Below are positions 4,500 through 22,170 of a stretch of DNA of 46,894 nt, one piece after another (position 1 is the stretch's first letter; each line of letters begins with the position of its first letter). The notes under the pieces are model-generated. The model was not told the origin of the DNA, ran no database searches, and was given only the letters and a program-made list of their open reading frames with translations. This stretch comes from a virus (Duplodnaviria > Caudoviricetes), in IMG/VR virus record IMGVR_UViG_3300007956_000005, positions 1-46,894 of that record; one strand, given 5' to 3'. The position numbers and the translations under genes were made by a program.

Positions 4500-4510
4500 T
4501 TGTTTAATTT

Positions 4511-4668: not shown

Positions 4669-4714
4669 ACGGATACCCCGTCCAGGGGTAACGTATATAT
4701 GGGAGTATATACAC

Positions 4715-5497
4715 ATGAATTTTAGTTACCGTGATCAATGGGAAATACTACAAGCAATAAATCTTACGGATGGTGAGCATAAAGCAATAGACTGCCCGTT
4801 CTGTGGTGGACGTAAGAAATTCAGTATTTCCAAGATAGATGGCAAGACTTTATGGAACTGTTATAGGGCTAGCTGTAACGCTAAAGGTGTGAACGCTGGC
4901 TCTAGATCCATAGAGGAAGCCAAAGCATATATGGCTGGTACAAACAAAACTAAGATAGAGCGTAAGACTACACCTCTACCTACAATGACTACGCCTATAA
5001 GAAACCACCCTAAATCAATAGAGTATCTTAAATCTGTTAACTCATATGAAGCCTACGAGAAGGGAAGTATCACGGTACGATACGCCCCTGGAGAAGATAG
5101 AGTCCTATTTTATACGAGAGATAAAGAAGGTGCTGTAGGACGTAACATGAAAGGGTACGGACCTAAGTGGTGGACCTATGGGGATACAACGTCAGGTATA
5201 CACGTTGGTACAGGATCTACAGCGGTACTTGTAGAGGATGTAGCTTCTGCTTGTGCAGTTTCACGGTGTAGTAACCTGGTAGGTGTAGCTTTGTTAGGAA
5301 CCAACCTAACTAAAAACCTTAGTAAATCCTTAAATGTGTATAAAAAACTTATTATTATTCTTGACAATGATGCAAAACAAAAGGCAATGTGCATGTTGCG
5401 AGGGTTAGATATGCCCTCAACAATGAGAATAACTAAGTCTGATCTAAAGACACTTAGTTTAAAAGATATTGAGAGGCTTATATACGATGTTACTTGA
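4715..5497 (+). CDS. DNA primase (Zn-finger + TOPRIM)
   Basis: CPFCGG...CYRASC Zn-binding domain; VLVED and LDND TOPRIM acidic motifs. Confidence 0.9.
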   Translation: MNFSYRDQWEILQAINLTDGEHKAIDCPFCGGRKKFSISKIDGKTLWNCYRASCNAKGVNAGSRSIEEAKAYMAGTNKTKIERKTTPLPTMTTPIRNHPKSIEYLKSVNSYEAYEKGSITVRYAPGEDRVLFYTRDKEGAVGRNMKGYGPKWWTYGDTTSGIHVGTGSTAVLVEDVASACAVSRCSNLVGVALLGTNLTKNLSKSLNVYKKLIIILDNDAKQKAMCMLRGLDMPSTMRITKSDLKTLSLKDIERLIYDVT

Positions 5498-5742
5498 TAA
5501 AATAGAAAACACAATTAGATCCGTATATGATTGGCCCTACTTGATTTCTGATACTCAGGCTAGACATATTAGGAATTCACGTAGATCTATAGATAAATCA
5601 GACCGTTACGGAATTAGCACTGCTACCGCAATGGGTACATATTTACTTCATCCACACCTTGGCCCGCCGACTTTTTAAGTCTAAAGGAGCCGTGCAGAAT
5701 ACTACTGCATTATTAACAACCTAAAATACTAAAAGGTGTACT

Positions 5743-5949
5743 ATGAAGTTACGAGCGCTAGTCCTCCTGGACTACGATTTACCAGATGCGGGATTAATTG
5801 AAGCTGCCGATCAACAAAGAGCGCTTCAAATTAAAATCGATGAGATCACTAAGGATAACCCTAACATTGTTTACAGTACTGTAGACATGCGTGAGCGCAG
5901 AGGTGACACACAGCCTGATCTGAAAAAAATGAAATTTCGTCAGACATAA
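5743..5949 (+). CDS. small hypothetical protein
   Basis: 68 aa ORF with AAGG SD and its own terminator. Confidence 0.7.
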   Translation: MKLRALVLLDYDLPDAGLIEAADQQRALQIKIDEITKDNPNIVYSTVDMRERRGDTQPDLKKMKFRQT

Positions 5950-5982
5950 GTATCTGAAACTAAACAATTAAAATATTTAAAT

Positions 5983-6012
5983 GGCCCTGGGTTTTATCTG
6001 GGGTCTTTTTTT
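5983..6012 (+). terminator. rho-independent terminator
   Basis: GGCCCTGGG-tttta-TCTGGGGTC followed by a T-run. Confidence 0.75.
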
Positions 6013-6015
6013 GTC

Positions 6016-6045
6016 TTGATTACCATTACAATGGTCTTTTATAAC
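6016..6045 (+). promoter_or_regulatory. helicase promoter TTGATT-N18-TATAAC with operator ACCATTACAATGGT (6022..6035)
   Basis: Perfect inverted repeat ACCATT-ac-AATGGT in the spacer. Confidence 0.65.
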
Positions 6046-6088
6046 GTGAGTGTAGCATCACGCTACTGCTAGCTAGAAAGGACCAATA

Positions 6089-7306
6089 ATGGATAAAGCA
6101 TTGTTGAAGACCTTATTGTCTTCAGAATTTTATCAAGCAAACAAAACAAAAATGAGGCAGTCGTTATTCACAGGTAACAATGCAGAGGTTTATAAAACCA
6201 TTGCTCAAGCACAGGACAAGTATGACCAAGATATAAGTACCAACGATATCTTAGCTATCTGGGCAACTAATCACCCTGTCGCAACAATCGCTGAAAAAGA
6301 AGATTTTGAAGACACTTTAACCGCAGTCAGAGAACAACAGTCTCTAACACCTGAAATAGCAAAGGATGTTATCGGGGATCTTTGGCGTAAGGAAACAGGT
6401 AGGGATATCACTACCCTGGGTATAAAGATAGCTGAAGGCCACGTTGAGGCAATGGCTACTCTAAAGAGCCTGTTGGAGCGTACCTCTGAAGATTACCTAC
6501 CTGATGACTATGGTCCTGCAACTACTGACGATCTGTATGAGTTACTGGCGCAAGCGAGTGATGAGTCTCGCTGGAAATTTAATATAAACCAGTTGTCACG
6601 TCATGTGTACGGTGTCGGTCCCACAGAGTTTATGATCATATTTGCAAGGCCTGAGACAGGTAAGTCGGCCTTAGCAGTCAGCCTATGTGCATCCCCTGAT
6701 GGTTTCTGTCAGCAAGGAGCAAAGGTTTTGTACATAGGTAACGAGGAAGCAACCCGCCGCACTAAGCTACGGGCAATACAATCCTTCACAGGTATGAGTA
6801 CTAGTGACATACAGGCCAATCCTGATCTAGCTTCTAGCCGATACTTAGCTATTCGTGATCGTTTGATTATGAAGGATGCCCAGGAGTGGGACATGACTAT
6901 GTTAGATGGTTATGTATCTCGTATTAAGCCTGATGTTTTAGTTATAGACCAATTGGACAAGGTCAATGTAGCGGGTCAGTTTGGTGGCACACACGAAAAG
7001 CTTCGTGAGATATACCGACAAGCACGGGAACTAGCCAAACGACACGAATGTGCAATCATTGCAGTATCCCAGGCGAGTGCTGAAGCAGAAGGACGTGTAC
7101 GTCTAGATTTCTCTATGATGGAGAACAGTAGAACAGGTAAGGCAGCGGAAGCTGATTTGATCTGTGGTGTAGGCAAATCATCTGGTGAAGATGATGATGG
7201 TCCTGATCCTACTAGGTTCTTACAAATATCTAAAAACAAATTGTCGGGGTGGCATGGTCAGGTGATCTGCAATCTACAAGCCGATATCACACGGTATGTA
7301 GACTGA
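6089..7306 (+). CDS. SF4 (DnaB-like) replicative helicase
   Basis: Walker A ARPETGKS, Walker B VLVIDQLD, VSQAS, KAAEAD, ISKNK. Confidence 0.92.
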   Translation: MDKALLKTLLSSEFYQANKTKMRQSLFTGNNAEVYKTIAQAQDKYDQDISTNDILAIWATNHPVATIAEKEDFEDTLTAVREQQSLTPEIAKDVIGDLWRKETGRDITTLGIKIAEGHVEAMATLKSLLERTSEDYLPDDYGPATTDDLYELLAQASDESRWKFNINQLSRHVYGVGPTEFMIIFARPETGKSALAVSLCASPDGFCQQGAKVLYIGNEEATRRTKLRAIQSFTGMSTSDIQANPDLASSRYLAIRDRLIMKDAQEWDMTMLDGYVSRIKPDVLVIDQLDKVNVAGQFGGTHEKLREIYRQARELAKRHECAIIAVSQASAEAEGRVRLDFSMMENSRTGKAAEADLICGVGKSSGEDDDGPDPTRFLQISKNKLSGWHGQVICNLQADITRYVD

Positions 7307-7830
7307 TGGGGAAACGATCTAGTTTTGAGAGAAAGCCCCGTGATTACTATAGAACTCCTGTAGAAGCAGTCGCACCTATTAGACCCTTCATCCAAGAGGT
7401 TCAGACGTTTTGTGAGCCGTGTGCGGGTGATGGGGCATTGATACGCAGTCTACTTACAATGGACCTAACGTGTGTCAGTGCATTCGATATAGATCCTCAG
7501 AAGATTGGCATCGATATACTGGATGCCACCCAGCTTGAGGAACATCATCTTAACAATGCAGATATTATTGTAACGAACCCGCCCTGGGAGCGTTCACTCC
7601 TACACTCGATGATCGAAAGGTTTTCAGACCTGCGGCCTACCTGGCTGCTATTTGATGCTGATTGGATTCACACAAAACAGGCCATCCCCTTCCTGCCACG
7701 GCTTAGAAAAATAGTAAGCATCGGGCGGGTAAAATGGTTCGATAAAACCGCAGGGAAAGACAATGCCTGTTGGTATCTTTTTGATCGTTATGACGAAAGT
7801 TATAACACTAAATTCTACGGGAGAACATGA
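7306..7830 (+). CDS. DNA N6-adenine/N4-cytosine methyltransferase
   Basis: DYYRTP, EPCAGDG (SAM binding), TNPPW (catalytic); ATG at 7306 overlaps the helicase TGA. Confidence 0.85.
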   Translation: MGKRSSFERKPRDYYRTPVEAVAPIRPFIQEVQTFCEPCAGDGALIRSLLTMDLTCVSAFDIDPQKIGIDILDATQLEEHHLNNADIIVTNPPWERSLLHSMIERFSDLRPTWLLFDADWIHTKQAIPFLPRLRKIVSIGRVKWFDKTAGKDNACWYLFDRYDESYNTKFYGRT

Positions 7831-8009
7831 TGCTTAATGAACATGACCTCAAAGAGTTTTATGAACTGCTTGAAAAGAAGCAGGAAGAATATTCCAGCGA
7901 AAAAAAGCCTGAACTTAAAAGCCTTATAGATGAGCAAGTAGATCTTCTCCAGGCACTCATATCTGTACAGACTAAGATCCTAGCTAAGTTGTCGGGGTTC
8001 AATGTATGA
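7827..8009 (+). CDS. small coiled-coil hypothetical protein
   Basis: ATGA overlaps at both ends; GGGAG SD. Confidence 0.7.
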   Translation: MMLNEHDLKEFYELLEKKQEEYSSEKKPELKSLIDEQVDLLQALISVQTKILAKLSGFNV

Positions 8010-8398
8010 CAAAAACCCTCGTACTAGATCTGGAAACCACCGTCCAACGTTTTGATGGTAAGACAGACAACAGCCCATTTAACCCTAATAACAAGTGTGT
8101 TTCAGCGCACTTTGGTTGGCTAGGCTCTGATACCGTGGATGAAGTAACCCACTTGGTGTTTAATCATAATGATAAGGCTACACCTGATAGCCCAGAACCT
8201 TTGCGTAAGGTTTTGTCTGAGGCTGATATATTAGTTGCCCACAATGCAAAGTTTGATGTTCTCTGGTTGAGGGCAATGGGTATGCCTATCCCCCCTAAAA
8301 TTAGATGCACCATGATCAATGAATACATTCTGGCTAAAGGGCAGCGCACAAAACTTTCTTTGAAAGAAACTGCCCAGCGCAGAGGTGCGGTGGAATGA
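8006..8398 (+). CDS. DNA polymerase A, N-terminal part of the 3'-5' exonuclease (ExoI, ExoII)
   Basis: VLDLETT (ExoI), AHNAKFD (ExoII), CTMINEY..LSLK. Confidence 0.85.
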   Translation: MTKTLVLDLETTVQRFDGKTDNSPFNPNNKCVSAHFGWLGSDTVDEVTHLVFNHNDKATPDSPEPLRKVLSEADILVAHNAKFDVLWLRAMGMPIPPKIRCTMINEYILAKGQRTKLSLKETAQRRGAVE

Positions 8399-10167
8399 TT
8401 ACACAAAAGAAAAGTGACCTAGTCGATGATTTGTTTACGTCAGGTGTCGGCTTTGAAGCCATGCCCTTGTATGATGTAGTCATACCCTATGCAGAAGCGG
8501 ATGTTAAAGCATGTGCAGAGGTGTATCTATCTCAACTGAGCAGTTTTGAGGAAGAAGATAACTTATCTTTAAAACCTATCGTAGTCCTAATGAATGAAAT
8601 GCTTGAGTTCTTAGTGGAGTGCGAAACAAACGGTGTTCAGATAGACTTAGACGTACTCTCTTCTATCGGGAATGAATTTCAGAAGGAGCATGATGAACTC
8701 ACCAAACGCCTAGATGAAATAGTAGAGATGGTAATGGGTGATACTCCTGTAAATTTAAATTCAGGAGCAGATGTATCCAAGCTTATCTACAGTAGAGAGG
8801 TGTCTAATAGAGATTATCATATACAGACATTTCGTATCGGTACTGATGAGCATGGTAGAACACTCCCGCCCCCTAGAATGAACAAGTCGGAGTTTAATAC
8901 CGCAGTACGTTCAAACACTAAGGTTATTCAAAAAACATCTATAGAGTGCTGCCCTGAGTGCGATGGTAGGGGTCAGGTTCAGAAGTATAAGCAAATAACT
9001 AGGTATAAGAATAAGAAACCATATAAAGTTGTAGGCGAAGCTTATAAGAACCTATCCAAGTGTCCTTCCTGTTTAGGGGTAGGGGCTTTCTACATTCCTA
9101 CTGGTAAGGTTGCAGGTTTAAAACTCAGTCCTTTGGGTCCACAGTATGCTGCGGCTCACGGTTTTAAGACTGATAAAGGGACTATTAAACTTCTAATATC
9201 CCACGCAAAAAACAAGAATAACGATATAGCTGTCGAGTTCCTGACTAAGATAAGTAGGCTTTCAGCGGTATCCACTTATTTAACTAGCTTTGTTAAAGGC
9301 ATTGAAACCTGGACACGTCCTAATGGTCTAATACATACAAACTTTAATCAATGCATCACCGCAACAGGGCGTCTGAGTTCTTCCAATATTAACCTGCAAA
9401 ATATGCCAAAACGGGGCTTCCCCGTCCGTAAGGCTATGGTGTCTAGATTTGACTACAAGATTGTTGAATTCGATTACTCAGGATTAGAATTTCGTGTTGC
9501 TGGAGAAGTGTCCCGAGATCCTCAGATTATTGAAGATATTCTGAATGGTAAGGACATCCATAAACAGACTGCTTCTATCATTCATAGAATACCTGCCGAA
9601 GAAGTGACCAAAGAAACTCGTTCCCAAATAAAGTTTCACACGTTTGCACCTCTATATGGTTCGCAAGGGTCAGGTTTAGCGGAACATGAGAAGAAATATT
9701 ACGACGAATTCTTTGTGATCTACAAAGGTCTAAAATCTTACCAGCAACGTCTTATGGATGGAGTTGTTAAGAACGGCATAGTTCAAACTCCTAGTGGCAG
9801 ACAGTACTATTGGCCTAATGCCCGTAGACTAAGAAATGGGCGGGTTACTAACGCTACTCAGGTAGTCAACTACCCCATCCAGGGATTTGCTACTGGGGAT
9901 ATAGTACCACTAGCTTGTGTAAGGGCGTTACGCCTTTTTAAGAGCCATAAACTCAAGTCAAAACTAATTCTAACGGTACACGACTCAATTGTAGTTGACT
10001 GCCATCCAGATGAATTGTCACAGGTCAAAAAAGTTTTAGTCGAGGCTATGGCTAATGTAGGCGAAGAATTAGAGCAACGCTTTGATTACAAACCAGTTTT
10101 ACCGCTAGATGTAGAGATGACTGCGGGTAAGAACTGGTTAGATCAGGATGATATTCCACTTGATTAA
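8395..10167 (+). CDS. polA: DNA polymerase A: ExoIII, DnaJ-type Zn finger and polymerase domain
   Basis: YAEADV (ExoIII); CPECDGRG and CPSCLGVG (CxxCxGxG); TGRLSS, DYSGLEFR (motif A), RSQIKFHTFAPLYG (motif B), VHDS (motif C). Confidence 0.93.
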   Translation: MITQKKSDLVDDLFTSGVGFEAMPLYDVVIPYAEADVKACAEVYLSQLSSFEEEDNLSLKPIVVLMNEMLEFLVECETNGVQIDLDVLSSIGNEFQKEHDELTKRLDEIVEMVMGDTPVNLNSGADVSKLIYSREVSNRDYHIQTFRIGTDEHGRTLPPPRMNKSEFNTAVRSNTKVIQKTSIECCPECDGRGQVQKYKQITRYKNKKPYKVVGEAYKNLSKCPSCLGVGAFYIPTGKVAGLKLSPLGPQYAAAHGFKTDKGTIKLLISHAKNKNNDIAVEFLTKISRLSAVSTYLTSFVKGIETWTRPNGLIHTNFNQCITATGRLSSSNINLQNMPKRGFPVRKAMVSRFDYKIVEFDYSGLEFRVAGEVSRDPQIIEDILNGKDIHKQTASIIHRIPAEEVTKETRSQIKFHTFAPLYGSQGSGLAEHEKKYYDEFFVIYKGLKSYQQRLMDGVVKNGIVQTPSGRQYYWPNARRLRNGRVTNATQVVNYPIQGFATGDIVPLACVRALRLFKSHKLKSKLILTVHDSIVVDCHPDELSQVKKVLVEAMANVGEELEQRFDYKPVLPLDVEMTAGKNWLDQDDIPLD

Positions 10168-10189
10168 TGGTACTTAATTATGGTACATT
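10160..10189 (+). promoter_or_regulatory. promoter TTGATT-N18-TACATT with operator TACTTAATTATGGT (10171..10184)
   Basis: Lies in the polA to SSB-like intergenic gap. Confidence 0.55.
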
Positions 10190-10217
10190 ATAAACTCAAT
10201 TATAAAAGGATACACCA

Positions 10218-11096
10218 ATGGGTGAACTTACAAATATAGAGGCCACTGATCTAGCAGCATTGGCAGAAAAACTGGGCGCAGCCAGTGGTGAAACTGCAAC
10301 AGTAAATATGTTGGAATTAAAGATTAACTACGAAGATGAAGACGATAATGGTGTTCGTTTAAATCTTGGTGATATCTACGTGCGGGAAAGTGATAAAAAC
10401 CACTTTTATGCTAAAAATGTTACCTTTCGCCCCTTGAGTCAGATGCACCAGTACTCTGTGTATAATGCTCAAGAAAAAAAGATGTCGTGCAAAACCCGCC
10501 TAATCGCAAACTTTCGTGAGGAAGCACGGGATACCAATGGCACAATACGATGTGGTAAACCTAGTTCTTCTGAGATGCGTGATCTTACAGAGGAACAACG
10601 GGCCAAGTATTCAGGTATAAAAAATCAAAGGCAGATCCGTGGCCTGGTAAGCTATACAGGTAAGTCATCCTCTGGTGAGGAAAAGACGTATGAAAACCTT
10701 CCAGTTCTAATGCGTTTAAATGGTCAGAATAACTATCAGGTAGATAGTAGCAATAAACTTTCTGCCCCCTTTGAAGCACAGTTTCTAAAACAAATCCCTC
10801 GGGGTTCCAGCATGTGGAATTTCAGTATGGATATTACTACCAAGCGCAGAAAGAGTGCTGCGGGTAAAGCGTACTATACCTACGAGTATACCCCTGATTT
10901 TGGTGTGCAGCTTCCGATAACGAAGGATATCTATGGATCACTTCAGATGATCGATCAGATCATTCAGGATGAGAATGCTTACGTTGATAGTCAGTACTAC
11001 AAGGCACTGAAAGGTGACATGTACGAAGCAGAGGCCTCGGAAGTTTTGGACCGTATGCATGATAGTTTAGATGCCGATTATGAGGACGTAGCTTAA
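10218..11096 (+). CDS. putative ssDNA-binding/annealing protein
   Basis: Position between polA and the exonuclease; acidic C-terminal tail DADYEDVA. Confidence 0.55.
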   Translation: MGELTNIEATDLAALAEKLGAASGETATVNMLELKINYEDEDDNGVRLNLGDIYVRESDKNHFYAKNVTFRPLSQMHQYSVYNAQEKKMSCKTRLIANFREEARDTNGTIRCGKPSSSEMRDLTEEQRAKYSGIKNQRQIRGLVSYTGKSSSGEEKTYENLPVLMRLNGQNNYQVDSSNKLSAPFEAQFLKQIPRGSSMWNFSMDITTKRRKSAAGKAYYTYEYTPDFGVQLPITKDIYGSLQMIDQIIQDENAYVDSQYYKALKGDMYEAEASEVLDRMHDSLDADYEDVA

Positions 11097-11950
11097 TGCT
11101 CCAAGAACTCATTCATATGACAATGGATCAAATGTCTAACGACGAATACGACGATCTAGTTGTGAAGGATGAGTGGATTGATGCCGTTGGTGAAAACATA
11201 AAGCGTGAACTAAAGAAAAGCCTAGCCCCTAGGGGTAAAGATTTTAGACTTCGGGGGTCCAATCTGGGTAAACCACCTTGCGTCCTTCAAATGCAAAAGT
11301 CTGGGGCTGAACCTTCTAGAAAACCTTACCATTTCGTAATGCAGATGCTGCACGGGTATATGATCGAAGAGATTATGACACTCATACTAAAAGTGGCAGA
11401 TGCAAACATTACGGGTGGTAAGGCCAAGGTTTCTTTAGATCTTGAGGGTGTTACCATTAAGGGTGAGGACGATATTCAGATCGATGGTAAAGAGTATGAT
11501 GTGAAATCGTGTTCACCCTGGGCCTTCAACAACAAGTGGAGCGAAGGATATCATGGCTTACGCAAGTCAGATAACTTTGGCTACGTTGGTCAGCTTATGG
11601 CTTACTCAGAGGCACAGGACATACCTGTTGGTGGGTGGCTGGTAGTCAATAAATCCACTGGTGAGGTTTTGGTTGTGGACGCAGACAACAGCCCTTCAGA
11701 ACGCAAAGCAGTTTTGAATAAGTTGAAGTCAACGGTACGCACTATCAAGAGTGATGCACCCTTTAAGCGTTGCTTTGAGCCTGTCAATGATACCTTCAAG
11801 AAAATGCCCACAGGACGCAAGTATCTGAGCAAAGATAACTGTGGAATGTGCGACTTCAAAACCTCTTGTTACCCTGGTGTTAAACTTAAACCGCAGCCTG
11901 AGAGTAAGGCAGCTAATCCACCATTAAAATGGTACATTAAAGAGGCCTAA
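11096..11950 (+). CDS. PD-(D/E)XK (Cas4/RecB-like) exonuclease
   Basis: GEDD..YDVKS, GYVGQLMAY, split Cys cluster (C..CGMCDFKTSC). Confidence 0.8.
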   Translation: MLQELIHMTMDQMSNDEYDDLVVKDEWIDAVGENIKRELKKSLAPRGKDFRLRGSNLGKPPCVLQMQKSGAEPSRKPYHFVMQMLHGYMIEEIMTLILKVADANITGGKAKVSLDLEGVTIKGEDDIQIDGKEYDVKSCSPWAFNNKWSEGYHGLRKSDNFGYVGQLMAYSEAQDIPVGGWLVVNKSTGEVLVVDADNSPSERKAVLNKLKSTVRTIKSDAPFKRCFEPVNDTFKKMPTGRKYLSKDNCGMCDFKTSCYPGVKLKPQPESKAANPPLKWYIKEA

Positions 11951-12303
11951 TGGCAATAACTCCGCAGTCTGCGAAAGCCAAAGGACGCCGATTGCAGCAA
12001 TGGGTGAGGGACAGGCTTTATTCCACTTTTCCTAAACTTGAGGATGGAGATATCCGCTCGACAAGCATGGGTGCTGGTGGAGAAGATCTGTTGTTCTCAC
12101 CCGCTGCCAGACGCTGCTTCCCATACTCCGTGGAATGCAAAAACAATAAAAGTAATGCGATTTATAAAGTGATGGATCAGGCCATCAGTAACTGCCCAAA
12201 GGGCGCTACGCCATTAGCCATAATTAAGGCTGATCACAAAAAGCCTCTAGCAGTTGTTGATGCAGATCACTTTTTCAAATTGGCAAAAAGGAATAAAAAA
12301 TGA
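11950..12303 (+). CDS. Holliday-junction resolvase-like endonuclease
   Basis: AKAKGRRLQ, GED, SVECK (Hjc-like PD-(D/E)XK). Confidence 0.75.
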   Translation: MAITPQSAKAKGRRLQQWVRDRLYSTFPKLEDGDIRSTSMGAGGEDLLFSPAARRCFPYSVECKNNKSNAIYKVMDQAISNCPKGATPLAIIKADHKKPLAVVDADHFFKLAKRNKK

Positions 12304-12620
12304 ATTCAGATAACATTCCTAAAAATTCAATTTCTCTAACTGTGTATTTGGATGATGAGGGTACTACCATCGTCGATACATATTCCAATCTGTCAGACAC
12401 ACTGCCTGATGATGAACAAACGTTCCTAAGATTAATGCTCAAAGGTTTAGAGTTTCACGCATACGCAGGGCCAAATCTATTAGCATCCATAGGTAATATT
12501 GTTGCGATACTTGATACCTATGAGGATGATGATCTGGAATTTGAGCCTGACGAGGAACTCAAAGAAAAGCTACAGGACGCCAAGGTTATACCCATTAATC
12601 GCAAGCCAAGGCTTAACTAA
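12300..12620 (+). CDS. hypothetical protein
   Basis: Coupled ORF in the operon. Confidence 0.7.
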   Translation: MNSDNIPKNSISLTVYLDDEGTTIVDTYSNLSDTLPDDEQTFLRLMLKGLEFHAYAGPNLLASIGNIVAILDTYEDDDLEFEPDEELKEKLQDAKVIPINRKPRLN

Positions 12621-12862
12621 TGGATCGTAACAAAGTGGCCTCAGATGGCCTATCCACCAGCTATTATACCATACCTAATCATGCCAGTGAGTTACGCCAT
12701 CTCATTAGTCATAAGGGCATGTCTAAGTCCCGTGGAGACATCTTTAAGGCTTGCTACAGGCTTGGTGAAAAAGAGGGAACAGATACCCTCTACGACTTAA
12801 ACAAAATGAAGTTTTTTATCGAAGATTTAATTGAAATGCACATGAGAGGAGAACATTTATGA
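12620..12862 (+). CDS. DUF3310-like protein
   Basis: SYY..GDIFKACYRLGEK..YDLNK pattern. Confidence 0.6.
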   Translation: MDRNKVASDGLSTSYYTIPNHASELRHLISHKGMSKSRGDIFKACYRLGEKEGTDTLYDLNKMKFFIEDLIEMHMRGEHL

Positions 12863-13185
12863 ACATGAAAGACTACCAGACACAGGCATCGAAAACCGCC
12901 ATCTATCCTGAGTGTGACGTAATTACATACCCCGCACTGGGTTTGGTATCTGAGGCGGGAGAAGTGGCGGGGAAGGTAAAAAAAGTACTTCGTGATCACA
13001 GTGGTCAATTTCTTCCAGAACAACGTGAGGCCATTGCAGACGAGGTGGGTGATTGCCTTTGGTATATTGCTAGTCTGGCAACCGACTTGGGAATGGGCAT
13101 GGAAGAAATTGCCCAGCGCAATCTTGATAAACTGAACAGTCGCATGGCCCGTGGGGTGCTGGGCGGTAGCGGCGATAATAGATAA
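12859..13185 (+). CDS. mazG: MazG-like NTP pyrophosphohydrolase
   Basis: LGLVSEAGEVAGKVKK..DEVGDCLWY..GSGDNR. Confidence 0.9.
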   Translation: MNMKDYQTQASKTAIYPECDVITYPALGLVSEAGEVAGKVKKVLRDHSGQFLPEQREAIADEVGDCLWYIASLATDLGMGMEEIAQRNLDKLNSRMARGVLGGSGDNR

Positions 13186-13225
13186 CCCCCAAAAATTCAT
13201 AAAATAAAATCAACGGGAGCAGAGA

Positions 13226-14968
13226 ATGCTAAAAAATAGTTACGGGCCTACACTACCGATTAGTGAGCAAATCCATAAAGAAAAATATCGTAGTGAAGGA
13301 GAAACCTTCCACGAAGCAATGACCCGTGTGGCAGAGGCATTGAAAGATGATGAACCACACTTCAATCAGTTTAGAAACATCCTGTATAACCAGCGGTTCT
13401 TACCAGCGGGGCGGGTACAATCGGCTATGGGCGCACCTCGCACTGTTACCCCATACAACTGCTTTGTGAGTGGTACTATTGAAGACAGCATGGAAGGCAT
13501 TATGGATGCGGCGAAGGACGCTGCTAGAACAATGCAGCTTGGTGGTGGAATAGGATATGACTTCTCTACTCTACGTCCACACGGGGCGCTCATTAAGAGC
13601 CTAGATAGCCGCTCTAGTGGCCCTCTTAGTTTTATGGCTATATTTGATAGTGTCTGTCATACTATAGCTTCTGCGGGGCATCGTCGGGGCGCACAGATGG
13701 GTGTACTGCGAGTAGATCATCCTGATATTGAAAAATTCATTCGTGCCAAGAATAATAGCACAGAACTAACAGGTTTTAACATTTCAGTTGGTGTCACTGA
13801 TGCCTTTATGGAAGCTGTTAAAACAGACAGTCAGTTTGATCTGGTCTTTGAGAACACTGTGTACTCCACAGTTAATGCCCGTGCGCTATGGGATGATATC
13901 CTGCGGTCTACATGGGATTGGGCAGAGCCAGGCATCCTGTTTATTGACCGCATCAACCGTAAGAATAATCTGCATTACTGTGAGAATATTGTTGCTACCA
14001 ATCCATGCGGTGAACAGCCGTTACCACCCTACGGGGCGTGTTTGCTGGGGTCATTTAACCTTGCTAAGTATATCGTACAGCATGACGGTAAATACGTCTT
14101 CAATATGAACATGCTAAAGACAGACATTCCGTTTGTGGTACGGGCAATGGATAACGTAGTAGATCGTGCTACTTACCCTCTCCCACAACAAGAGAAGCAA
14201 GCAAAAGACACACGGCGTATGGGCCTTGGTGTTACAGGTGTTGCTAATGCTATTGAATCGCTAGGATTTGATTACGGTACAGATGAGTTCATCCGTGTTC
14301 TGGAAGAGATCATGGGTACAATTCGTGATGTTTGTTATGAAACATCGGTAGAATTAGCACAGGAAAAAGGTGCATTCCCATTATTCAAGAAAGAATACTT
14401 GGACAGTGAATTTGCAAAGACCTTACCCCCTAAGATACGAAAAAGCATTGCGAAGCATGGTATTCGTAACTCTCACCTACTGTCAGTAGCACCTACAGGT
14501 ACAATCAGCCTGAGTGCAGACAACGTATCCAGTGGTATCGAACCTGTCTTTAGTCACTTCTATGACCGTACCATCCAGACATTCGATGGTCCTACCATTG
14601 AGCGAGTAGATGACTATGGCTACCGTGAGTTTGGGGTCAGAGGTAAAACCGCTGATGAACTATCTGTGTTTGACCATGTGCGGGTTCTAAATGTTGCATC
14701 AAAGTATGTTGATAGTGCGTGTAGCAAGACCTGTAATGTAGGTGATGATGTAACTTGGGAACAATTCAAACAGGTATACATGGATGCATATGAGGGCGGT
14801 AGTTCAGGCTGTACGACATTCCGTGCATCTGGAAAAAGATACGGCATTCTGAATGCTTCTGCGTCTGAGGATATTGCTGAAGAAAAGCCCGTGGAAAAAG
14901 ACAATTTCATCGAAGAAGGGGGAGCATGTTATTATGACCCTGCCACTGGACTGCGTAAGTGTGAGTAA
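13226..14968 (+). CDS. nrdJ: class II (adenosylcobalamin-dependent) ribonucleotide reductase
   Basis: PAGR, NCFV, TNPCGEQPL, APTGTIS, C-terminal Cys pair; no beta subunit nearby. Confidence 0.9.
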   Translation: MLKNSYGPTLPISEQIHKEKYRSEGETFHEAMTRVAEALKDDEPHFNQFRNILYNQRFLPAGRVQSAMGAPRTVTPYNCFVSGTIEDSMEGIMDAAKDAARTMQLGGGIGYDFSTLRPHGALIKSLDSRSSGPLSFMAIFDSVCHTIASAGHRRGAQMGVLRVDHPDIEKFIRAKNNSTELTGFNISVGVTDAFMEAVKTDSQFDLVFENTVYSTVNARALWDDILRSTWDWAEPGILFIDRINRKNNLHYCENIVATNPCGEQPLPPYGACLLGSFNLAKYIVQHDGKYVFNMNMLKTDIPFVVRAMDNVVDRATYPLPQQEKQAKDTRRMGLGVTGVANAIESLGFDYGTDEFIRVLEEIMGTIRDVCYETSVELAQEKGAFPLFKKEYLDSEFAKTLPPKIRKSIAKHGIRNSHLLSVAPTGTISLSADNVSSGIEPVFSHFYDRTIQTFDGPTIERVDDYGYREFGVRGKTADELSVFDHVRVLNVASKYVDSACSKTCNVGDDVTWEQFKQVYMDAYEGGSSGCTTFRASGKRYGILNASASEDIAEEKPVEKDNFIEEGGACYYDPATGLRKCE

Positions 14969-14970
14969 CC

Positions 14971-15147
14971 ATGAATAAACCCTATGACGAGGGCTTCCAG
15001 GCCTTCTTTCGGGGGGATTTCATATGTCACTATAGGCTCCGCTCTCACTACCATCGTGAGTGGCAGCGGGGCTTCAATTCAGCGTATTTTTATAACAGGG
15101 ATACCTATGTACAAAGCATTCCAGAAGAATATCTTCGACAAGTATGA
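14971..15147 (+). CDS. small Rmf/CrpP-like protein (58 aa)
   Basis: Manual translation MNKPYDEGFQAFFRGDFICHYRLRSHYHREWQRGFNSAYF..., G-x-x-A-x3-G..C-x-Y..W-x-x-G pattern. Confidence 0.55.
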   Translation: MNKPYDEGFQAFFRGDFICHYRLRSHYHREWQRGFNSAYFYNRDTYVQSIPEEYLRQV

Positions 15148-15529
15148 TGCTCCTGCTAGGGAAAAGGCCAAGAGGTTTTGGCGCTCCCAGGGGTACGTAT
15201 GCACGGACCATAAGGATGAATACGATGTTGATCTTGTTGTAGAGAAAGATAACAAACGATTTTACTGCGAAGTCGAAGTCAAAACTACCTGGCATGGACA
15301 GGAATTTTCCTATGATACATTACACATACCTGCCCGTAAGGCTAAGTTTTTATCTAAGCCAACTCAGTTCATGGTGTTCAATAATAGTATGACTAGAGCA
15401 GCTATCGTGGGGCGCAATAGGTTGTTAAATGCCACCACAGTAACCGTGCCAAACAGAAAGATTGCATTCGGGGAACAGTTCTTTGATGTGCCTAAAAAGG
15501 ATTTATTTTTTGTACCCCTAGAAATATAA
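15107..15529 (+). CDS. PD-(D/E)XK nuclease-fold protein
   Basis: YDVDL...CEVEVK motif; start at MYKAF preferred to 14984. Confidence 0.65.
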   Translation: MYKAFQKNIFDKYDAPAREKAKRFWRSQGYVCTDHKDEYDVDLVVEKDNKRFYCEVEVKTTWHGQEFSYDTLHIPARKAKFLSKPTQFMVFNNSMTRAAIVGRNRLLNATTVTVPNRKIAFGEQFFDVPKKDLFFVPLEI

Positions 15530-15560
15530 AAAGCCCCCAAGTCTATTGACCTAGGAGCCT
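15528..15560 (-). terminator. terminator of the leftward structural operon
   Basis: Minus strand GGCUCCUAGGUC-aaua-GACUUGGGGGCU followed by a U-run. Confidence 0.65.
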
Positions 15561-15574
15561 TCCAATTCTATAAT
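15546..15574 (+). promoter_or_regulatory. near-consensus sigma70 promoter TTGACC-N17-TATAAT driving sRNA-2
   Basis: 11/12 consensus match; no downstream ORF before the terminator. Confidence 0.75.
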
Positions 15575-15580
15575 ATTTGT

Positions 15581-15645
15581 AACGGGGTTGGTCCCCCGTT
15601 TAGCTAGTAAGAAGCCCTCAGATTTAGGTCTGGGGGTTTTTCTTT
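15581..15645 (+). ncRNA. candidate small RNA 2 (~62 nt)
   Basis: Hairpin AACGGGG-uuggu-CCCCCGUU, single-stranded UAGCUAGUAAG, terminator GCCCUCAGA..UCUGGGGGU-UUUU; complementary to three phage RBS regions. Confidence 0.65.
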
Positions 15646-18600
15646 ACCTGCCTAATCCTAATACTTCCATTGTCTGATCTATGGCATTCTTTGTTTTAGA
15701 CTTGGCACTGTCTACTGTCTTATCTACCGTTACTGCGGCATCAATTAGATTCTCATCCCAAGTTTTGTATGTGGATTCCCTATCTGCTTCAGCGTACTTA
15801 CCTATACGAATACCTAGAGAAAACATTTCATCATACATATCTTTTGGGAGCCTGATGGGGCCAATCCCTTTAGTGGCCCTAATTGATTCCAGTTTGTCTA
15901 TTACTTTTAAAGCTTCCTTGCTGTCTGACACAATTATGTCCATAGCAATCTCATACCTATTTGTAACATCCATTTTTTCAGCGGCAAGCCTACCCGCTGT
16001 ACGGGCCTGTGTACCAATACGATTTAACGGACCAACAATCACGTTAATCATCGTATTAATAGCATTCTGGTATTGCTGTATCTCTGGTGTACCTGATGAT
16101 CCTGGCAACGCTTTAGCATTACGCTTCGCCTGACCCTCAGATGCGGCGGTAAGAATAGTTTTGATAACACTTTTAAGTTTAGGATCATTTTCAAGAATGA
16201 CCTCTCCTGATGCAGCAAGTCCTGTGTTTTCTTTCAGTATATTTCGGACCTTTGCCACACTAGATACGGGCGCACCAGTATTAGTCTGACCCGCAGTAAA
16301 TGCTTTGTCCCTTAATTCTTGCAGGTAAAGTTTCTTCAGTCCCCCACGCACAACAGGACTGTTGTCTGTAGCGTTAAGTATTACTTTAACACTATCCGCA
16401 CCATTAGAGGAATTTAGCATAGAGGTTATTTTATTCTCTACATTTGCAGAAGGCATCCCTGGTACAAAGTCATCTACAAATCCAGAAATTAATTTAGAAA
16501 AAGCATCATTCTGCATAGCATCAAACTGCTCTTGTGCTTGAACTAAAGTATCTGCAACAGGCTCACCTGTCTGTTTAGAATTCCTTATTCTGCTTTCAAG
16601 CATATCAAGTTCCATTGCCAGGGTATCGAAGTTGCCTCGCATTTGGTCAGCGTAACCTCTAATAGTGGAACTAAGAGTAGCAGGGTCTATGTTATTAATA
16701 CCGTCTTTAGTGATCTGAGCGTATAAATCTTCAAACGTCCTAGCAACTAGGTATTCTTGAATAGTCTCTGGACTTGCACCTATATCAGAGACTTCTAGTG
16801 CTTTTACCAACTGTGCTACTTCTTCCGAAGCACCAGACTCAAGTATATTAGTAACTTGTCCTTGTGACTGCACTTTTTCAGCCGTGGGGGCAAGTTTCCC
16901 AACACGGGTATCTTTAAATGTCGTGTAAGTATCCGTTAATGGCGCATCCCCCCACAAAGGGATGAACTCATCTTTGTAATAATCCATAGCCTTTGTGGCA
17001 GCGTCTTTAGCCTCTGGGTTGTTAATAGCCACAAATTCAACCTGATCATCAATGTACTTCACTACAGATCTTAGGCGAGCCCCTACTGGACCTCTACCAT
17101 TAGAGAAGGCTTCTTCTGCTAAAGCAGATATTGCGGGACGAATATCATTATACAGGCGTTTAAAATCTACTCCTGAATCAAACAATTCTTGCGCCAGGTC
17201 TGCAACATCCACTGGATCTTGGGTAACAGGGTTTCCAAATTGATCTAGAAGAGTACTAGGGGCTTGTTCTCCAGGTTTAGTCTTTTTATATGCCGCCTTA
17301 ATAGTGGCAATTAATCTAGACTGTAAAAATTCCGCACCCTCAGTACCGAACTGATCCAGGTTAGTAGATAGTTCTTCAATTAAGTTCCCAAAGCCTTCGT
17401 AATCAAATTTAGCGTCTTCAGGTATCTCATTAAACAGATCGTTTTTCTTTTTAGTCATGCGCTCTGCTTCATCAACGAGCGTAGTAGCTATTTCTTTTTT
17501 CTTTGCTACCGACAAGGCGCTTACTTCAGAAGAAGATACTTTAGATAAACGGCTTAAAGCAGGAGATAAATTAGGATCACTAAGTATGCTGTTTAACGCA
17601 GCTTCATTATCAGTCTTAATTGCTTCTTCTGCTTCAAATATACTACGCTGTTGCTTCAGCATTCGGCTGTCGTTACTTCCAACGATACCTTCTACTGCAT
17701 CATTCATTGTAGAACCCGCAGGTAATGCGGCCTTTGCTTCCTCTTGAAGGATTCTGTCTGTTTGCACATTAACCATATTTGATTGCTGATTAAGTGCGCC
17801 TTGGTTTTTAGAACTACTTACAATTCCACTACGGAGTTGCTGTATACGGGCCAGTGTCTGTGGAGTGACATCCTCCCCAGCTTCTAGAGCAGCAAACACG
17901 TCTAGGGTTACATCATTTTTTTGTTTGCTGGCGTCGGTCTGTTCAATTAGCAACTCACTATTTTTTCGCATAATGCTTATAAGTTGCTGTCTTGCGGTTT
18001 CCATATCTTGTTTTGTGGAGTTTGCTTGCACTGAAGCAAGATCTGAAAGGATGTTATCCATCGCAGAGGATTTCTTAGCTGCATCGCCCTCTAGTAAAGT
18101 TCTTGCGATTGCTCCTACGGAAGCCTCATTAATGAAGTCAGCCGTCTTTAACCCTACTTTAATTGCATTATCTAGAACACCTGACATAATCAAACTGTCT
18201 ACAAATATGTTCATCCTTGCAGCTAGAATTTGCTCTGCTTCAGGGTCTTCACGGTTTACCCCAAAAGGAGCCAGAATAGCTTCCGTATCTGTATCAGCCC
18301 CAAATGCGATACCTAGTTCGCCCCCTGTGTACTTTAGAAGCTGCTTGGTAGGCTCATAAGTTTTTTCTATTACAGGCTGACCTAGTTTCATCCAAGTTTC
18401 GTTTTTAGAAAGGGGATTCATAAACCGTTTTATTAAGCGTTCACCACCCTCTACCGCTGCATCCGCAGCTATTTTTCCTGTAAAGAAAGATGCAGCTAAT
18501 CCCGCACCTTCAGTCATAACAGCATCTACTTTAGAGAAACCTGATGAACTACGAGGAATTGTATTAGTCCATTCCACAAGTTTTGTATCTAAGCCTACTT

Positions 18601-19291
18601 TATCTGCTACTACATCACCTACTGCGGCGGCTACTTCAAGCGCATTTGTGCCAGAATCAACTATACCTTCAAGGAGTTGAGTTCCGTGGTTAACCGAAGC
18701 ACCTCGACTAGCTTGAAAATCTGGAGCAATAAAGTTTATGAAGTTATCAACTACATCAGATACTACAGGTATGCCTAAATTTAATTTACCTCTAGGAAAG
18801 GGTATTCTCCACGTCTTACCACTAACAGGGTCATTATAGAGAAGTTCCCCTGTAGCGGTATCTACCACAGTGTTTTCACTATCGGCATACGCATTGTACA
18901 CCTCAAAAGCGGTTAGTTCTCCCCCTTCAGGGGTAGTTTCTGTACGGTCATCCCGATATCCTAGGGGCAATCCATCGTACATCTCCCCTGCGGGAAGACC
19001 TGGATTAAGTTCTGCCGTACTATTAGACGAAGATACGTTTTCATCAACTCCCTGCTCTTCTCTAATAGAAGCATCATATGCCTGGATCTCTTCGTTTGTG
19101 AAACCCGCAGCCTCTAAATCCGCAGCCTCGTAGCCCCCCTGTATATCCCTAAGTTCATTAGCGTAAGACACTAACTCAGGGTTAATCTCGGTAGTCTCTA
19201 CTTCCGCTTTAACATCATCGAATGGATCAAATATAGTAGGTTTTTCTTCTACAGTAGGTGTCTTATCAAAGGGATCAAAAATTTCTGCCAT
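15644..19291 (-). CDS. large internal virion (ejection) protein
   Basis: 1215 aa helical acidic protein, last gene of the structural operon; N-terminal IFDPFD repeats. Confidence 0.65.
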   Translation of the reverse strand: MAEIFDPFDKTPTVEEKPTIFDPFDDVKAEVETTEINPELVSYANELRDIQGGYEAADLEAAGFTNEEIQAYDASIREEQGVDENVSSSNSTAELNPGLPAGEMYDGLPLGYRDDRTETTPEGGELTAFEVYNAYADSENTVVDTATGELLYNDPVSGKTWRIPFPRGKLNLGIPVVSDVVDNFINFIAPDFQASRGASVNHGTQLLEGIVDSGTNALEVAAAVGDVVADKVGLDTKLVEWTNTIPRSSSGFSKVDAVMTEGAGLAASFFTGKIAADAAVEGGERLIKRFMNPLSKNETWMKLGQPVIEKTYEPTKQLLKYTGGELGIAFGADTDTEAILAPFGVNREDPEAEQILAARMNIFVDSLIMSGVLDNAIKVGLKTADFINEASVGAIARTLLEGDAAKKSSAMDNILSDLASVQANSTKQDMETARQQLISIMRKNSELLIEQTDASKQKNDVTLDVFAALEAGEDVTPQTLARIQQLRSGIVSSSKNQGALNQQSNMVNVQTDRILQEEAKAALPAGSTMNDAVEGIVGSNDSRMLKQQRSIFEAEEAIKTDNEAALNSILSDPNLSPALSRLSKVSSSEVSALSVAKKKEIATTLVDEAERMTKKKNDLFNEIPEDAKFDYEGFGNLIEELSTNLDQFGTEGAEFLQSRLIATIKAAYKKTKPGEQAPSTLLDQFGNPVTQDPVDVADLAQELFDSGVDFKRLYNDIRPAISALAEEAFSNGRGPVGARLRSVVKYIDDQVEFVAINNPEAKDAATKAMDYYKDEFIPLWGDAPLTDTYTTFKDTRVGKLAPTAEKVQSQGQVTNILESGASEEVAQLVKALEVSDIGASPETIQEYLVARTFEDLYAQITKDGINNIDPATLSSTIRGYADQMRGNFDTLAMELDMLESRIRNSKQTGEPVADTLVQAQEQFDAMQNDAFSKLISGFVDDFVPGMPSANVENKITSMLNSSNGADSVKVILNATDNSPVVRGGLKKLYLQELRDKAFTAGQTNTGAPVSSVAKVRNILKENTGLAASGEVILENDPKLKSVIKTILTAASEGQAKRNAKALPGSSGTPEIQQYQNAINTMINVIVGPLNRIGTQARTAGRLAAEKMDVTNRYEIAMDIIVSDSKEALKVIDKLESIRATKGIGPIRLPKDMYDEMFSLGIRIGKYAEADRESTYKTWDENLIDAAVTVDKTVDSAKSKTKNAIDQTMEVLGLGR

Positions 19292-22170
19292 TAGTCATCT
19301 ACCTTGTATTTTTTATTGTAGAAATTTATTAGGTCAGCGTCAGATACACCTTTATTTCTTTCATCCGCCTTTGCCGCCTTCAGAAAAGCCTCTAAAGAAG
19401 GTGGATCATTTGAGGTTACTTCAGGACTTTTCTCTATCGGCGCACCCGTAAACCGTGCGTAATTATCTTTCAGGGATTGAGAAGTTTGTGCCGCCACATA
19501 ATCAGCCATATTTAAAGGCTCACTTACAGGTGACCACCCATATTTGTCTTTAAACCCTTGGATCTGGCTTCCTGGCCCTACTACTTTGAAATGTTTCTGG
19601 TCATAGGATTCAATCTTACCTGCCATATAGTCCGTCAGGTTTTTCTTAAATGCTTCCGCAGACCCACCAGATGTTCGTACAATATCCATAATTTTTGTGA
19701 AATCTTGGTTCGACATGGCATTGCCCGATTGTCCTTCCATACGTCCAACTTGGAACGCTAAAGACAACATCTTAGCTTCAAACCGTGCAGTTGCATCTGC
19801 TAGATTTTGTACATTTCCAGAAATTACAGCGTCTAAGAAATTATTATCAAATCCACCCTGTCTCTGTAGTTGGTCAAGGGTTATTTCTTCATTTGATTTA
19901 AACAACTCTTCAGCAACACTGAAAATCTGTCCACTGGATCTTCCTGTGGTTGTTAAGAATTTAGCAAGTATACCACCTGCACCTGTGACCCGTTCATCCG
20001 TTTCTACAATTTCTATAGCTTGGGAAGAGGTATTCATACCTTCAGCAAGTGCGGTATTAGCAACACCTAGTTCAGTAATTATTTTCTGAGTTTCAGTTCT
20101 AATAGTTTTAAAGGCATCAGTTTCAATTTCACCCAAGGGAAGTGCAGTCTTGACTTCATTACCTTCTGCATCCCGATAGACTTCTTCCCTGGGCTTCTGG
20201 TAAATAGTTTTATACTCAAACTTACCATCACCTAGAGGAACTTTTGCTTCAACTGTAACAATACCAAATCCGTTTTTCTCAACTGCCTTTTGACGTTCAG
20301 AGTTTGCTTGTTGATTCGTTTTTAGATTTTCAAGTGCCTGGATTACAGCGTTACCTGCACCCTCTTTTTTAGCCAAAGTTATTTGTTTCTCAGTTGTGTT
20401 AACGCTAGTAGCACTGTCTATATATTTACGATATAAACCGTTCTTCTCAAGTTCTTTAGCCGCATCAATTTCACCTTGTAGGGCAGACAATTCCTTATCG
20501 GTGGCCCCGCCTTGTTCAGCTATCCGCTTAATTGAATCCAACTCTACCCCATTTTTACCTACGAGATAGGTAGGCTTGAGAAGGTCTTTATAAGGTAATT
20601 CCCCATCTTTAAGACTCTTTGCCATAGAAGCTGCTAGGTTAAAGTTGGCTAGATCCCCTACCTGGAAGAATTCTCTAGATTTTGCGGTCATTGCATCCGC
20701 ACTGCTAGATGCCTCTGATATCCAAGAGTAAGTATTAACATCGCCTTCATTAATGCGATCCGCTGCGGCTCTGGTAGTCTGGTTAGTAGAGTACTTAGCC
20801 ACAAGCGCCCGTTGATCTGGAGACATTTCAATCAGTTCTTTTTGTGAATACTCTTTTCGTGCCTCTATAATGGGTAGTATATCTTTTGCTATGTTAGCAG
20901 GTACTTCCATACCTTTTGCTTCAGCTAAAGCTATGCGATCTTTTAACTTGCTTGCGGTCATATCGTCAGCCAACAAGACTTTCATTGAGAATAGTTCTTC
21001 AACCTTCTGTGTGCTGTCCAACGCTTTTAAATTTTCACCCCGTGCATTAAAGGTTTCCATAAATTCTGGGTCAACATCCGTTCTGTTTGCGGTTATACTT
21101 GCGTTCTTAGCTTCCCAATCTGCGTATGTTTTTATATTTTCAATACTTACAGGCTCGTACTTACGTTTTGCAGTGTTGAATGCTAGATCTTCCCCTCTGA
21201 ACGGACGGCGATCTTCTACAACTTCGTTTGAATCAAATACGCCTGTTTCTACCTGCTCAATAACAGAAAGAACGTCCTCGTCAGAAACGTTTTTCAACCC
21301 TTCCCATGTGTCTCTCATAGTAGAAATTCGTGATGCGTCTGTATTTTGGCCTTTTAAGCGATCTTGGGCGTAACGTAGGAATAGAGCATCCTGAGTTTCC
21401 TCATCAAAGACTGTATCATCTGTAATTCCTAGAGATTCAAATGTACCATTACGCTTGAGTTCCTGCATTGTATCGCCGACAAATTGATACTTACCAGCGG
21501 GAGTAGATCCAAGTCCCTTTCTGTACGCTTCTGTACTTTCAGGCATGTTAACTTTTGACCATGCATGATAGGAACCTTCCCCACGTTTGGATTGGAAATC
21601 CATAAGTTCTTTAACAGTCATTTCGCTAACAACTATATCAGAGAATGCTCCGTTCTGAGCCTGGTTAAGTAGCGCATTAGCCCCACCCTTTCCACTCTCT
21701 TGATCTGTAAGTGTGTCTATGCTGGTGACGTTACGAGGCATACCTGGCCCCTGTTGAGGGTCTAAACGTTCAATAGAACCGCTCTCCAACCCTGATATAA
21801 AGTAGTCAGAGATTTTAGTTACGTCACTTCCACCTTTAGCCATAGTATATGCTGTTTGGAAAGCAGTTGTATTGTCTCCAAATGAGCCGCCTGTCATGGA
21901 CAGGGCAGACCTAGCTATGTCTTTATATTTCTTATCTTCCAGATCCGCTGCTTCTTGTTTTTCACGAATCCGTCTACGATTTTCTTTTTCTTCTTCAGCC
22001 TGATCTTTGGCTAGGGCTTTAGCGTCAGCTTTCTCTTGTGCCGCTGTATCCATCCAGCTTTTAGCAACAATGTCTGCGGCTTTTGCAAAACCTTCTTCCA
22101 AAGCATTTGATTTCTGGACATATTCACCACGGGCTACTCTGCCACGAACATCCTTACGATAACTCATCAA
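19291..22170 (-). CDS. internal virion protein with lysozyme-like (lambda R/GH104-type) domain
   Basis: ESGKGG..MTVKEL..STPAGKYQF..FDEETQD..TWEGL motifs at about aa 155-295. Confidence 0.7.
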   Translation of the reverse strand: MMSYRKDVRGRVARGEYVQKSNALEEGFAKAADIVAKSWMDTAAQEKADAKALAKDQAEEEKENRRRIREKQEAADLEDKKYKDIARSALSMTGGSFGDNTTAFQTAYTMAKGGSDVTKISDYFISGLESGSIERLDPQQGPGMPRNVTSIDTLTDQESGKGGANALLNQAQNGAFSDIVVSEMTVKELMDFQSKRGEGSYHAWSKVNMPESTEAYRKGLGSTPAGKYQFVGDTMQELKRNGTFESLGITDDTVFDEETQDALFLRYAQDRLKGQNTDASRISTMRDTWEGLKNVSDEDVLSVIEQVETGVFDSNEVVEDRRPFRGEDLAFNTAKRKYEPVSIENIKTYADWEAKNASITANRTDVDPEFMETFNARGENLKALDSTQKVEELFSMKVLLADDMTASKLKDRIALAEAKGMEVPANIAKDILPIIEARKEYSQKELIEMSPDQRALVAKYSTNQTTRAAADRINEGDVNTYSWISEASSSADAMTAKSREFFQVGDLANFNLAASMAKSLKDGELPYKDLLKPTYLVGKNGVELDSIKRIAEQGGATDKELSALQGEIDAAKELEKNGLYRKYIDSATSVNTTEKQITLAKKEGAGNAVIQALENLKTNQQANSERQKAVEKNGFGIVTVEAKVPLGDGKFEYKTIYQKPREEVYRDAEGNEVKTALPLGEIETDAFKTIRTETQKIITELGVANTALAEGMNTSSQAIEIVETDERVTGAGGILAKFLTTTGRSSGQIFSVAEELFKSNEEITLDQLQRQGGFDNNFLDAVISGNVQNLADATARFEAKMLSLAFQVGRMEGQSGNAMSNQDFTKIMDIVRTSGGSAEAFKKNLTDYMAGKIESYDQKHFKVVGPGSQIQGFKDKYGWSPVSEPLNMADYVAAQTSQSLKDNYARFTGAPIEKSPEVTSNDPPSLEAFLKAAKADERNKGVSDADLINFYNKKYKVDD

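Follow-up and report, generated by a model that had tools for sequence, protein, structure and literature searches.

A predicted antisense RNA complementary to several early-gene leaders in a CRP-3-like phage of the HMO-2011 type

The unit at 15581-15645, which lies at the operon junction of a window of 46,894 nucleotides (the whole stretch of DNA that was analysed), probably encodes a trans-acting antisense RNA of the phage. This RNA is predicted to pair over the ribosome-binding leaders of several early genes of the phage itself, and of the helicase in the window lineage, and so to block their translation. A probability of about 0.8 is given to this reading, which is drawn from sequence. The unit is very probably a conserved, functional RNA with multiple targets. 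Its direct support consists of complementarity, a conserved layout of promoter, hairpin and terminator, and co-variation genome by genome. In at least 11 lineages, the specificity box and 2-6 leaders have been rewritten together, which is an unusually clear natural record of the co-evolution of a small RNA and its targets.

The window is a podovirus-like, CRP-3-like phage of the HMO-2011 type. Its plus strand carries genes for integrase, thymidylate synthase, primase, DnaB helicase, DNA polymerase and ribonucleotide reductase, and its minus strand carries the virion and lysis genes. The helicase is 47-57% identical to those of the Roseobacter phages CRP-235, CRP-212, CRP-738 and CRP-3, compared with 34-40% for other HMO-2011-type phages. 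Helicase identity, gene order and the att core would place the window in subgroup III (CRP-3-like). CRP-3 is assigned to subgroup III, and an integrase to most members of subgroups I and III, in the available text of PMC9038755; that of PMC6918029 gives a tRNA-Met gene as the integration site of CRP-3. HMO-2011-type phages are counted among the most abundant in marine viromes in the available part of PMC4928673. The DNA polymerase region at 8006-10167 is read as two overlapping open reading frames (130 and 590 aa) and is a single gene in the CRP records. A plus-strand entry of the ORF list at 42868-44724 fails to give the listed translation; the terminase is expected there on the minus strand, where there is no annotation.

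The junction unit and its predicted targets in the window

The following features describe the junction and its phage context:
2308..3426, plus strand: integrase of the tyrosine type (context)
4512..4548, plus strand: tRNA-like att core, likely attP, one base off the matching CRP-3 sequence (context)
15527..15564, minus strand: intrinsic terminator of the late (virion) operon, with the -35 box of the RNA promoter inside its hairpin
15546..15574, plus strand: sigma70-type promoter TTGACC-17-TATAAT (-35 box 15546-15551, -10 box 15569-15574), consensus score 11/12
15581..15645, plus strand: predicted small RNA of about 62-65 nt, its start estimated from the -10 box
15581..15600, plus strand: 5' hairpin of 7 bp with the loop UUGGUC (15588-15593), a conserved seed complementary to GACCAA just before start codons
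15598..15610, plus strand: variable specificity box, made of the last 3 nt of the stem arm and the single-stranded linker and complementary to the upstream leader box
15610..15645, plus strand: intrinsic terminator serving both the RNA and the replication operon, predicted to work on the plus strand only
15644..19291, minus strand: last gene of the late operon, whose stop codon overlaps the U tail of the predicted RNA

The junction promoter, called near-perfect in the first-pass annotation, deserves the description: with 11 of 12 consensus positions it scores highest among 27 promoter-like sites in 1..20000, a region where such sites are without overall enrichment (27 vs 40.5 expected). The same annotation had held that this promoter is exceptional in lacking an operator found at other promoters, and this part is unsupported. 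CTTAGT/ACTAAG-like words stand near five of the nine upstream regions that were examined. The RNA promoter lacks them, but so do the GP88, primase and helicase regions, and they are present in coding DNA as well. The unit has no ATG-started frame, as had been noted. Folding gives a UUGGUC-loop hairpin, a 9-nt open linker and a terminator hairpin (z -3.8), and the unpaired probabilities leave both loop and box free, in agreement with the claim that the seed sits in a hairpin loop. The terminator was seen by folding, with 7 T in the next 8 nt, but a plus-strand terminator was absent from the terminator scan. The proposal that the predicted +1 is the first paired base proved weak, and the stem reaches outward by at least 2 pairs in 6 of 17 units.

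The target sites in the window and the genes behind them are:
1..152, minus strand: DNA methyltransferase-like gene, 5' part (phrog_757), which runs off the window
157..172, minus strand: target site in the leader of the methyltransferase-like gene
879..1586, minus strand: GP88-family early gene (PF17338)
1593..1616, minus strand: target site in the GP88 leader, 13 + 7 nt, pairing over 20 bp with a 4x3 internal loop
6069..6086, plus strand: target site in the leader of the DnaB-like helicase
6089..7306, plus strand: DnaB-like helicase (phrog_19)

The complementarity on which the idea was founded is exact, since 15598-15610 is identical to 1604-1616 (13/13) and 15588-15594 to 1593-1599 (7/7); the helicase and methyltransferase leader sequences also read as described. 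No word of the RNA body longer than the 13-mer at 15598-15610 recurs elsewhere in the window. TAGCTA-N2-9-GGACCA, a pattern chosen post hoc, has four copies in the window, namely the three leaders and, in the opposite sense, the junction; its chance rate is 0.057 per simulated genome, with a maximum of 2 in 300 simulations. The targets lie 9.5-15.4 kb from the RNA and in other transcription units. The net predicted binding of the RNA to the three sites is -16, -12 and -12 kcal/mol. Among all 445 ATG leaders of the window, the GP88, helicase and methyltransferase leaders rank 1, 2 and 3, as had been foreseen, when the loop-plus-box part is used, but 1, 4 and 14 with the whole RNA body. The statement that pairing covers the Shine-Dalgarno (SD) sequence stands for GGA, which is paired, but the AAAA of the A-rich SD sits in the internal loop in this phage. 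The SD regions of the GP88 and methyltransferase leaders are predicted to be open without the RNA, and GGACCA of the helicase leader is partly paired by prediction.

The target genes scanned belong to GP88, DUF932, DUF2958, DUF2786, methyltransferase-like, helicase or unknown types, and no match to an antirepressor family was found among them. A hairpin stands directly 5' of each target site (175-196 and 1617-1640 on the minus strand and 6049-6070 on the plus strand). These hairpins are possibly 5' stabilisers of short early transcripts.

Conservation and co-variation among relatives

In each relative, the motif common to the leftward early leaders is the complement of that phage's own unit. 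The complement measures 13 nt in G001 and 15 nt in G026, and the run in G003 passes through the SD itself. Between 2 and 6 leaders match per genome. The RNA and its leaders co-vary across relatives, which the first-pass annotation had proposed as a check.

Two permutation tests were applied to this pattern. In the strict test, which covered 11 genomes, a leader counted as a target solely for having GACCA close to its start codon, and scoring was confined to the part of the RNA that lies 3' of the loop and the part of the leader that lies 5' of GACCA. The cognate RNA took first place in 10 of 11 columns and in as many rows (0/100,000 permutations); the exception is G006, which is second in its own column. 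The broad test scored 13 distinct RNA types with every early ORF leader in 13 genomes, and the cognate diagonal (centred trace) was -106 vs 0 +/- 14, again with 0/100,000 permutations. The matrices leave out G021, G023 and G005 (no helicase match, no unit), the near-duplicates G004, G008, G009, G025 and L121, and the fragments G012 and G013.

Agreement between RNA and leaders extends to genomes with other motifs. G007 and G024 have neither GACCA leaders nor a UUGGUC loop, and their RNAs still match their own leaders. The unit of G022 and G025 was missed by the first patterns and was found at the junction with a pattern derived from their own leaders. L283 is a weaker case, in which loop and leaders have a different 7-mer in common; a leader-derived 8-mer matched leaders only, and no second box was seen in its junction unit. 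GACCA is found in the GP88 leaders of 12 of 16 integrase-linked loci vs 0 of 21 unlinked loci, so the motif belongs to the phage group and not to the GP88 gene.

Pairing with the helicase leader is cognate-specific in about 6 of 13 lineages (54/100,000 permutations overall, with two start sites estimated). The original claim of silencing of replication and early genes is therefore narrower than it was put: the leftward early genes are the conserved targets, but the helicase is one in only about half of the lineages, and the repression itself is predicted. Fifteen close relatives keep the upstream box, while the seed site reads GGACCA in 6 and GGGCCA in 9. This change would be tolerated through a G:U pair and is probably one event.

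The unit itself is conserved, and dozens of metagenomic relatives have it at the same junction. All four cultured CRP-3-like phages, located by annotation and without a pattern, have the same order of promoter, hairpin, linker and terminator there, and inspection by eye found the unit at the junction of none of the three more distant phages CRP-1, HMO-2011 and HTVC033P. Of 80 loci fetched by reductase, 50 match the unit pattern; the pattern required TTGAC and TGGTC, hence those words were selected. Inspection of 26 of the 30 misses found six units with another loop, four sequences ending within 20 nt and 16 with nothing convincing. Two tested misses among the 30 are contigs without a helicase match.

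Promoter placement is alike in relatives, and a -10 match of 5-6/6 at a spacing of 16-18 nt occurs in 21 of 33 units, with 3/33 and 7/33 at two control spacings. The 5' stem varies in sequence and length and keeps its pairing: 79% of pairs are canonical in 15 distinct cores vs 47% with shuffled arms (0/10,000), a statistic that leaves relatedness outside. A single hairpin, a single-stranded linker and a terminator make up the fold of 16 of 17 units; G007 has two hairpins instead of one.

Some variants deserve separate mention. G007 (L150, junction near contig positions 25091-25260) has a longer RNA with two GUGGUAA-loop hairpins, and its minus-strand terminator has moved downstream. L069, L072, L092, L094 and L095 have a loop other than UUGGUC and keep the promoter, linker and terminator. 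About 550 nt past the RNA, G022 (L221) and G025 carry an extra segment with a 19-nt motif repeated twice, a second promoter-like box and a terminator; on its minus strand, a small ORF resembles, by eye, the window ORF at 1865-2056.

Working strand, mechanism and competing explanations

The promoter and terminator evidence favours an RNA from the plus strand. After the downstream hairpin, a run of 6-7 T follows on the plus strand in 17 of 17 units vs 2-4 T on the minus strand in 16 of 17. The upstream hairpin, which holds the -35 box, is more stable on the minus strand in 16 of 17 units and weak on the plus strand (-6.5 kcal/mol). Because of this terminator polarity in 16-17 of 17 units, full antisense overlap is predicted between the RNA and the 3' end of the late mRNA, except in G007, where the late mRNA would not cover the unit because the minus-strand terminator lies downstream. 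Other measures of the strand are more even. Mismatch polarity is 50 of the G:U type vs 41 of the A-C type, the RNA strand pairs better than a mirror control in 24 of 44 leaders, and the 5' stem is more stable on the plus strand in 11 of 17 units and slightly more stable on the minus strand in the window.

A mechanism can be proposed as follows. Transcription by the host sigma70 polymerase would begin near 15581. The RNA would first touch GACCAA and the upstream box of a leader with its exposed UUGGUC loop and its unpaired box, after which the 5' stem would open and a duplex of 17-28 bp would form, spanning about -33 to -1. Such a duplex over the SD, up to the start codon, would keep the 30S subunit off and block initiation. 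Repression of translation by SD occlusion is established for base-pairing small RNAs, as stated in the available text of PMC12197685. The loop would serve as a common handle and the box would give phage specificity, like b' and a' of C4 RNA. Once the lytic programme is under way, transcription of the late operon across the locus would put the RNA out of action.

Several other explanations of the same pattern have to be weighed. The motif might work on the minus strand, as a sense copy of the leader motif in the 3' UTR of the late mRNA, a decoy for a phage protein that binds RNA and recognises the early leaders. By prediction, the late transcript runs across the locus, the G:U polarity leaves the strand unsettled, and two conserved small proteins without assigned function are present. 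However, a sigma70 promoter and a plus-specific terminator are conserved around the motif, the G007 late mRNA would lack the unit, and the protein would need a new specificity across about 13 unrelated boxes of 10-15 nt, whereas ORF 5743-5949 stays conserved; the decoy is improbable. Even less is to be said for a DNA operator repeated at the early promoters and once at the junction. TAGCTA is palindromic in the window phage and promoter-like elements lie upstream of each early leader, but the boxes of relatives are not palindromic, the motif abuts the start codon at fixed polarity, and the copy at the junction invariably has the opposite sense and sits within a compensated hairpin, behind a promoter that drives no ORF.

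Activation or stabilisation of the leaders by the RNA, instead of repression, is just as hard to credit as the operator. The 5' hairpins next to the box in the leaders would suit it, but the duplex covers the SD and reaches the start codon in most cognate pairs, and the SD regions of the GP88 and methyltransferase leaders are predicted to be open even without the RNA. A chance likeness of A-rich leaders to a terminator region can be nearly dismissed: promoter-like matches are common and the window pattern was chosen post hoc, but cognate specificity holds across 11-13 lineages, and both permutation tests reject it.

Possible role in the phage and relation to known RNAs

Given this mechanism, the main role of the antisense RNA is most likely the silencing of early genes in lysogens and superinfected cells, a little ahead of a lytic shut-off; the two roles can coexist. 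An integrase is present in 18 of 18 RNA-bearing genomes that cover that region (a single clade), and the att core in 15 of 23 sequences scanned. The host-type promoter would fire in a prophage, and the predicted targets include the helicase in some lineages. CRP-3, CRP-212 and CRP-235, phages of one host strain (FZCC0040), have three different boxes. Because three cultured phages on one strain differ in this way, immunity or shut-off would be predictable from sequence.

The same RNA and pairing might instead serve lytic timing, a substantial alternative that differs in role only. The RNA, made from its own promoter and as the replication-operon 3' end, would turn off early host-takeover genes at the early-to-middle switch. 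Since the upstream hairpin is weak on the plus strand, replication-operon transcripts would end at the RNA's terminator, which counts for this role, and GP88, DUF932, DUF2958 and methyltransferase-like targets are the kind of gene needed briefly. Fragment L275, whose RNA locus is off the contig, has GGACCAA leaders and no integrase match, and CRP-1 and HMO-2011 have integrases and no such unit at the junction; both observations speak for timing and against lysogeny. No prophage turned up among GTDB genomes, which counts against lysogeny as well: the helicase gave no match there, and an alignment search gave seven short MAG contigs with the look of phage DNA that had been binned. Most predicted targets are accessory genes and none is a known antirepressor, which also counts against a lysogeny role. 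On the other side, timing gives no need for different boxes in phages of one host, a helicase target would be awkward during replication, and the late mRNA would titrate the RNA. For this last reason, a shut-off late in infection, which the first-pass annotation had offered, is disfavoured, since the RNA would be covered along its full length by the antisense late mRNA.

A bolder form of the lysogeny role can be stated, and it is rather unlikely. One RNA would stand in place of a CI-type protein repressor and silence the whole early regulon (plus the helicase in some lineages), the variable box would define immunity groups among phages of one host, and the overlapping late mRNA would be a built-in anti-repressor that flips the switch. 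No convincing protein repressor was found among the ORFs scanned in the window and its relatives, which counts for a lysogeny role in general. Among 58 ORFs of relatives, one has a sub-threshold helix-turn-helix match, CRP-212 gp55, which is itself behind a target leader. ORFs 1865-2056 and 5743-5949 match no named family, have confident models without a helix-turn-helix and gave no Foldseek match at E 0.001. A repressor of unfamiliar fold is possible in these phages.

The unit resembles several known RNAs in part. In the available text of PMC5320573, C4 of P1/P7 uses two short pairing elements, one partly on the ribosome-binding site and one upstream that sets specificity; the same arrangement is predicted here from pairing and co-variation. 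That text ties C4 to lysogeny and superinfection immunity, with few changed bases separating immunity groups. Unlike the present unit, C4 is described there as three stem-loops with a' and b' loops, whereas 16 of 17 folded units consist of hairpin, linker and terminator. C4 is also cut by RNase P from a longer transcript, whereas the unit has its own promoter directly ahead of the hairpin, which suggests a primary transcript, and the C4 target is an antirepressor operon, whereas here 2-6 separate leaders per genome lie 9-15 kb away. A search with Rfam models gave no C4 among seven matches up to E 10, and no Rfam family reached its gathering score in the window or nine related loci. The unit is thus predicted to work like P1/P7 C4 and is not a member: it has no Rfam match, another fold and several targets.

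A looser parallel is the CI RNA of satellite phage P4, which, in the available text of PMC4825925, likewise keeps replication genes off in the lysogen and does so by pairing with two short sequences. It is, however, processed from the leader that it controls, between its two target sequences, and acts by premature transcription termination, whereas the junction RNA would reach distant units and its pairing over SD and start codon points to translation control. P22 sar, lambda OOP and aQ, BTP1 STnc6030, Phi24B 24B_1, VP882 VpdS and lambda PreS are also phage RNAs that act on lysis-lysogeny, replication or superinfection exclusion; as covered in the available part of PMC12197685, each of them either has one phage gene as its target or works chiefly on host RNAs, and none is presented there as complementary to a leader motif that recurs in front of a set of early genes of the same phage. 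At the sequence level, the unit is like trans-encoded base-pairing small RNAs in having its own promoter, an intrinsic terminator, no ORF, and a conserved and accessible seed whose complement lies in distant mRNAs that co-vary with it. The literature searched, which leaves most subscription journals outside, gave no description of such an RNA in HMO-2011-type phages; in the HMO-2011 literature searched, "antisense RNA" occurs only in the title of a cyanophage reference, and the available text of PMC9038755 and PMC6918029 has 0 occurrences of repressor, promoter and antisense RNA.

Some further observations concern the early region. A 68-aa protein is encoded at 5743-5949 (plus strand); 46 aligned relatives keep it immediately ahead of the helicase, its ERR and K residues are invariant, and it is a candidate nucleic-acid-binding regulator. 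The frame at 1865-2056 (plus strand) encodes a conserved 63-aa protein, divergent from the early genes and modelled as a helix plus three strands. The word TGACGTGCGAGTA is repeated at 1805-1820 and 2064-2078, flanking ORF 1802-2056, and a word similar to TGACGTGCGAGTA follows the first gene in CRP-235, CRP-3 and CRP-212. Opposite the integrase leader, a second unit of promoter, hairpin and terminator lies at 2105-2200 (minus strand) with an anti-SD-like CCUCCC loop, which we take to be reminiscent of alphaproteobacterial cuckoo RNAs. This second unit gave only sub-threshold matches to Rfam, and CUCCC stretches like its own stand upstream of the integrase in nine of nine genomes compared.
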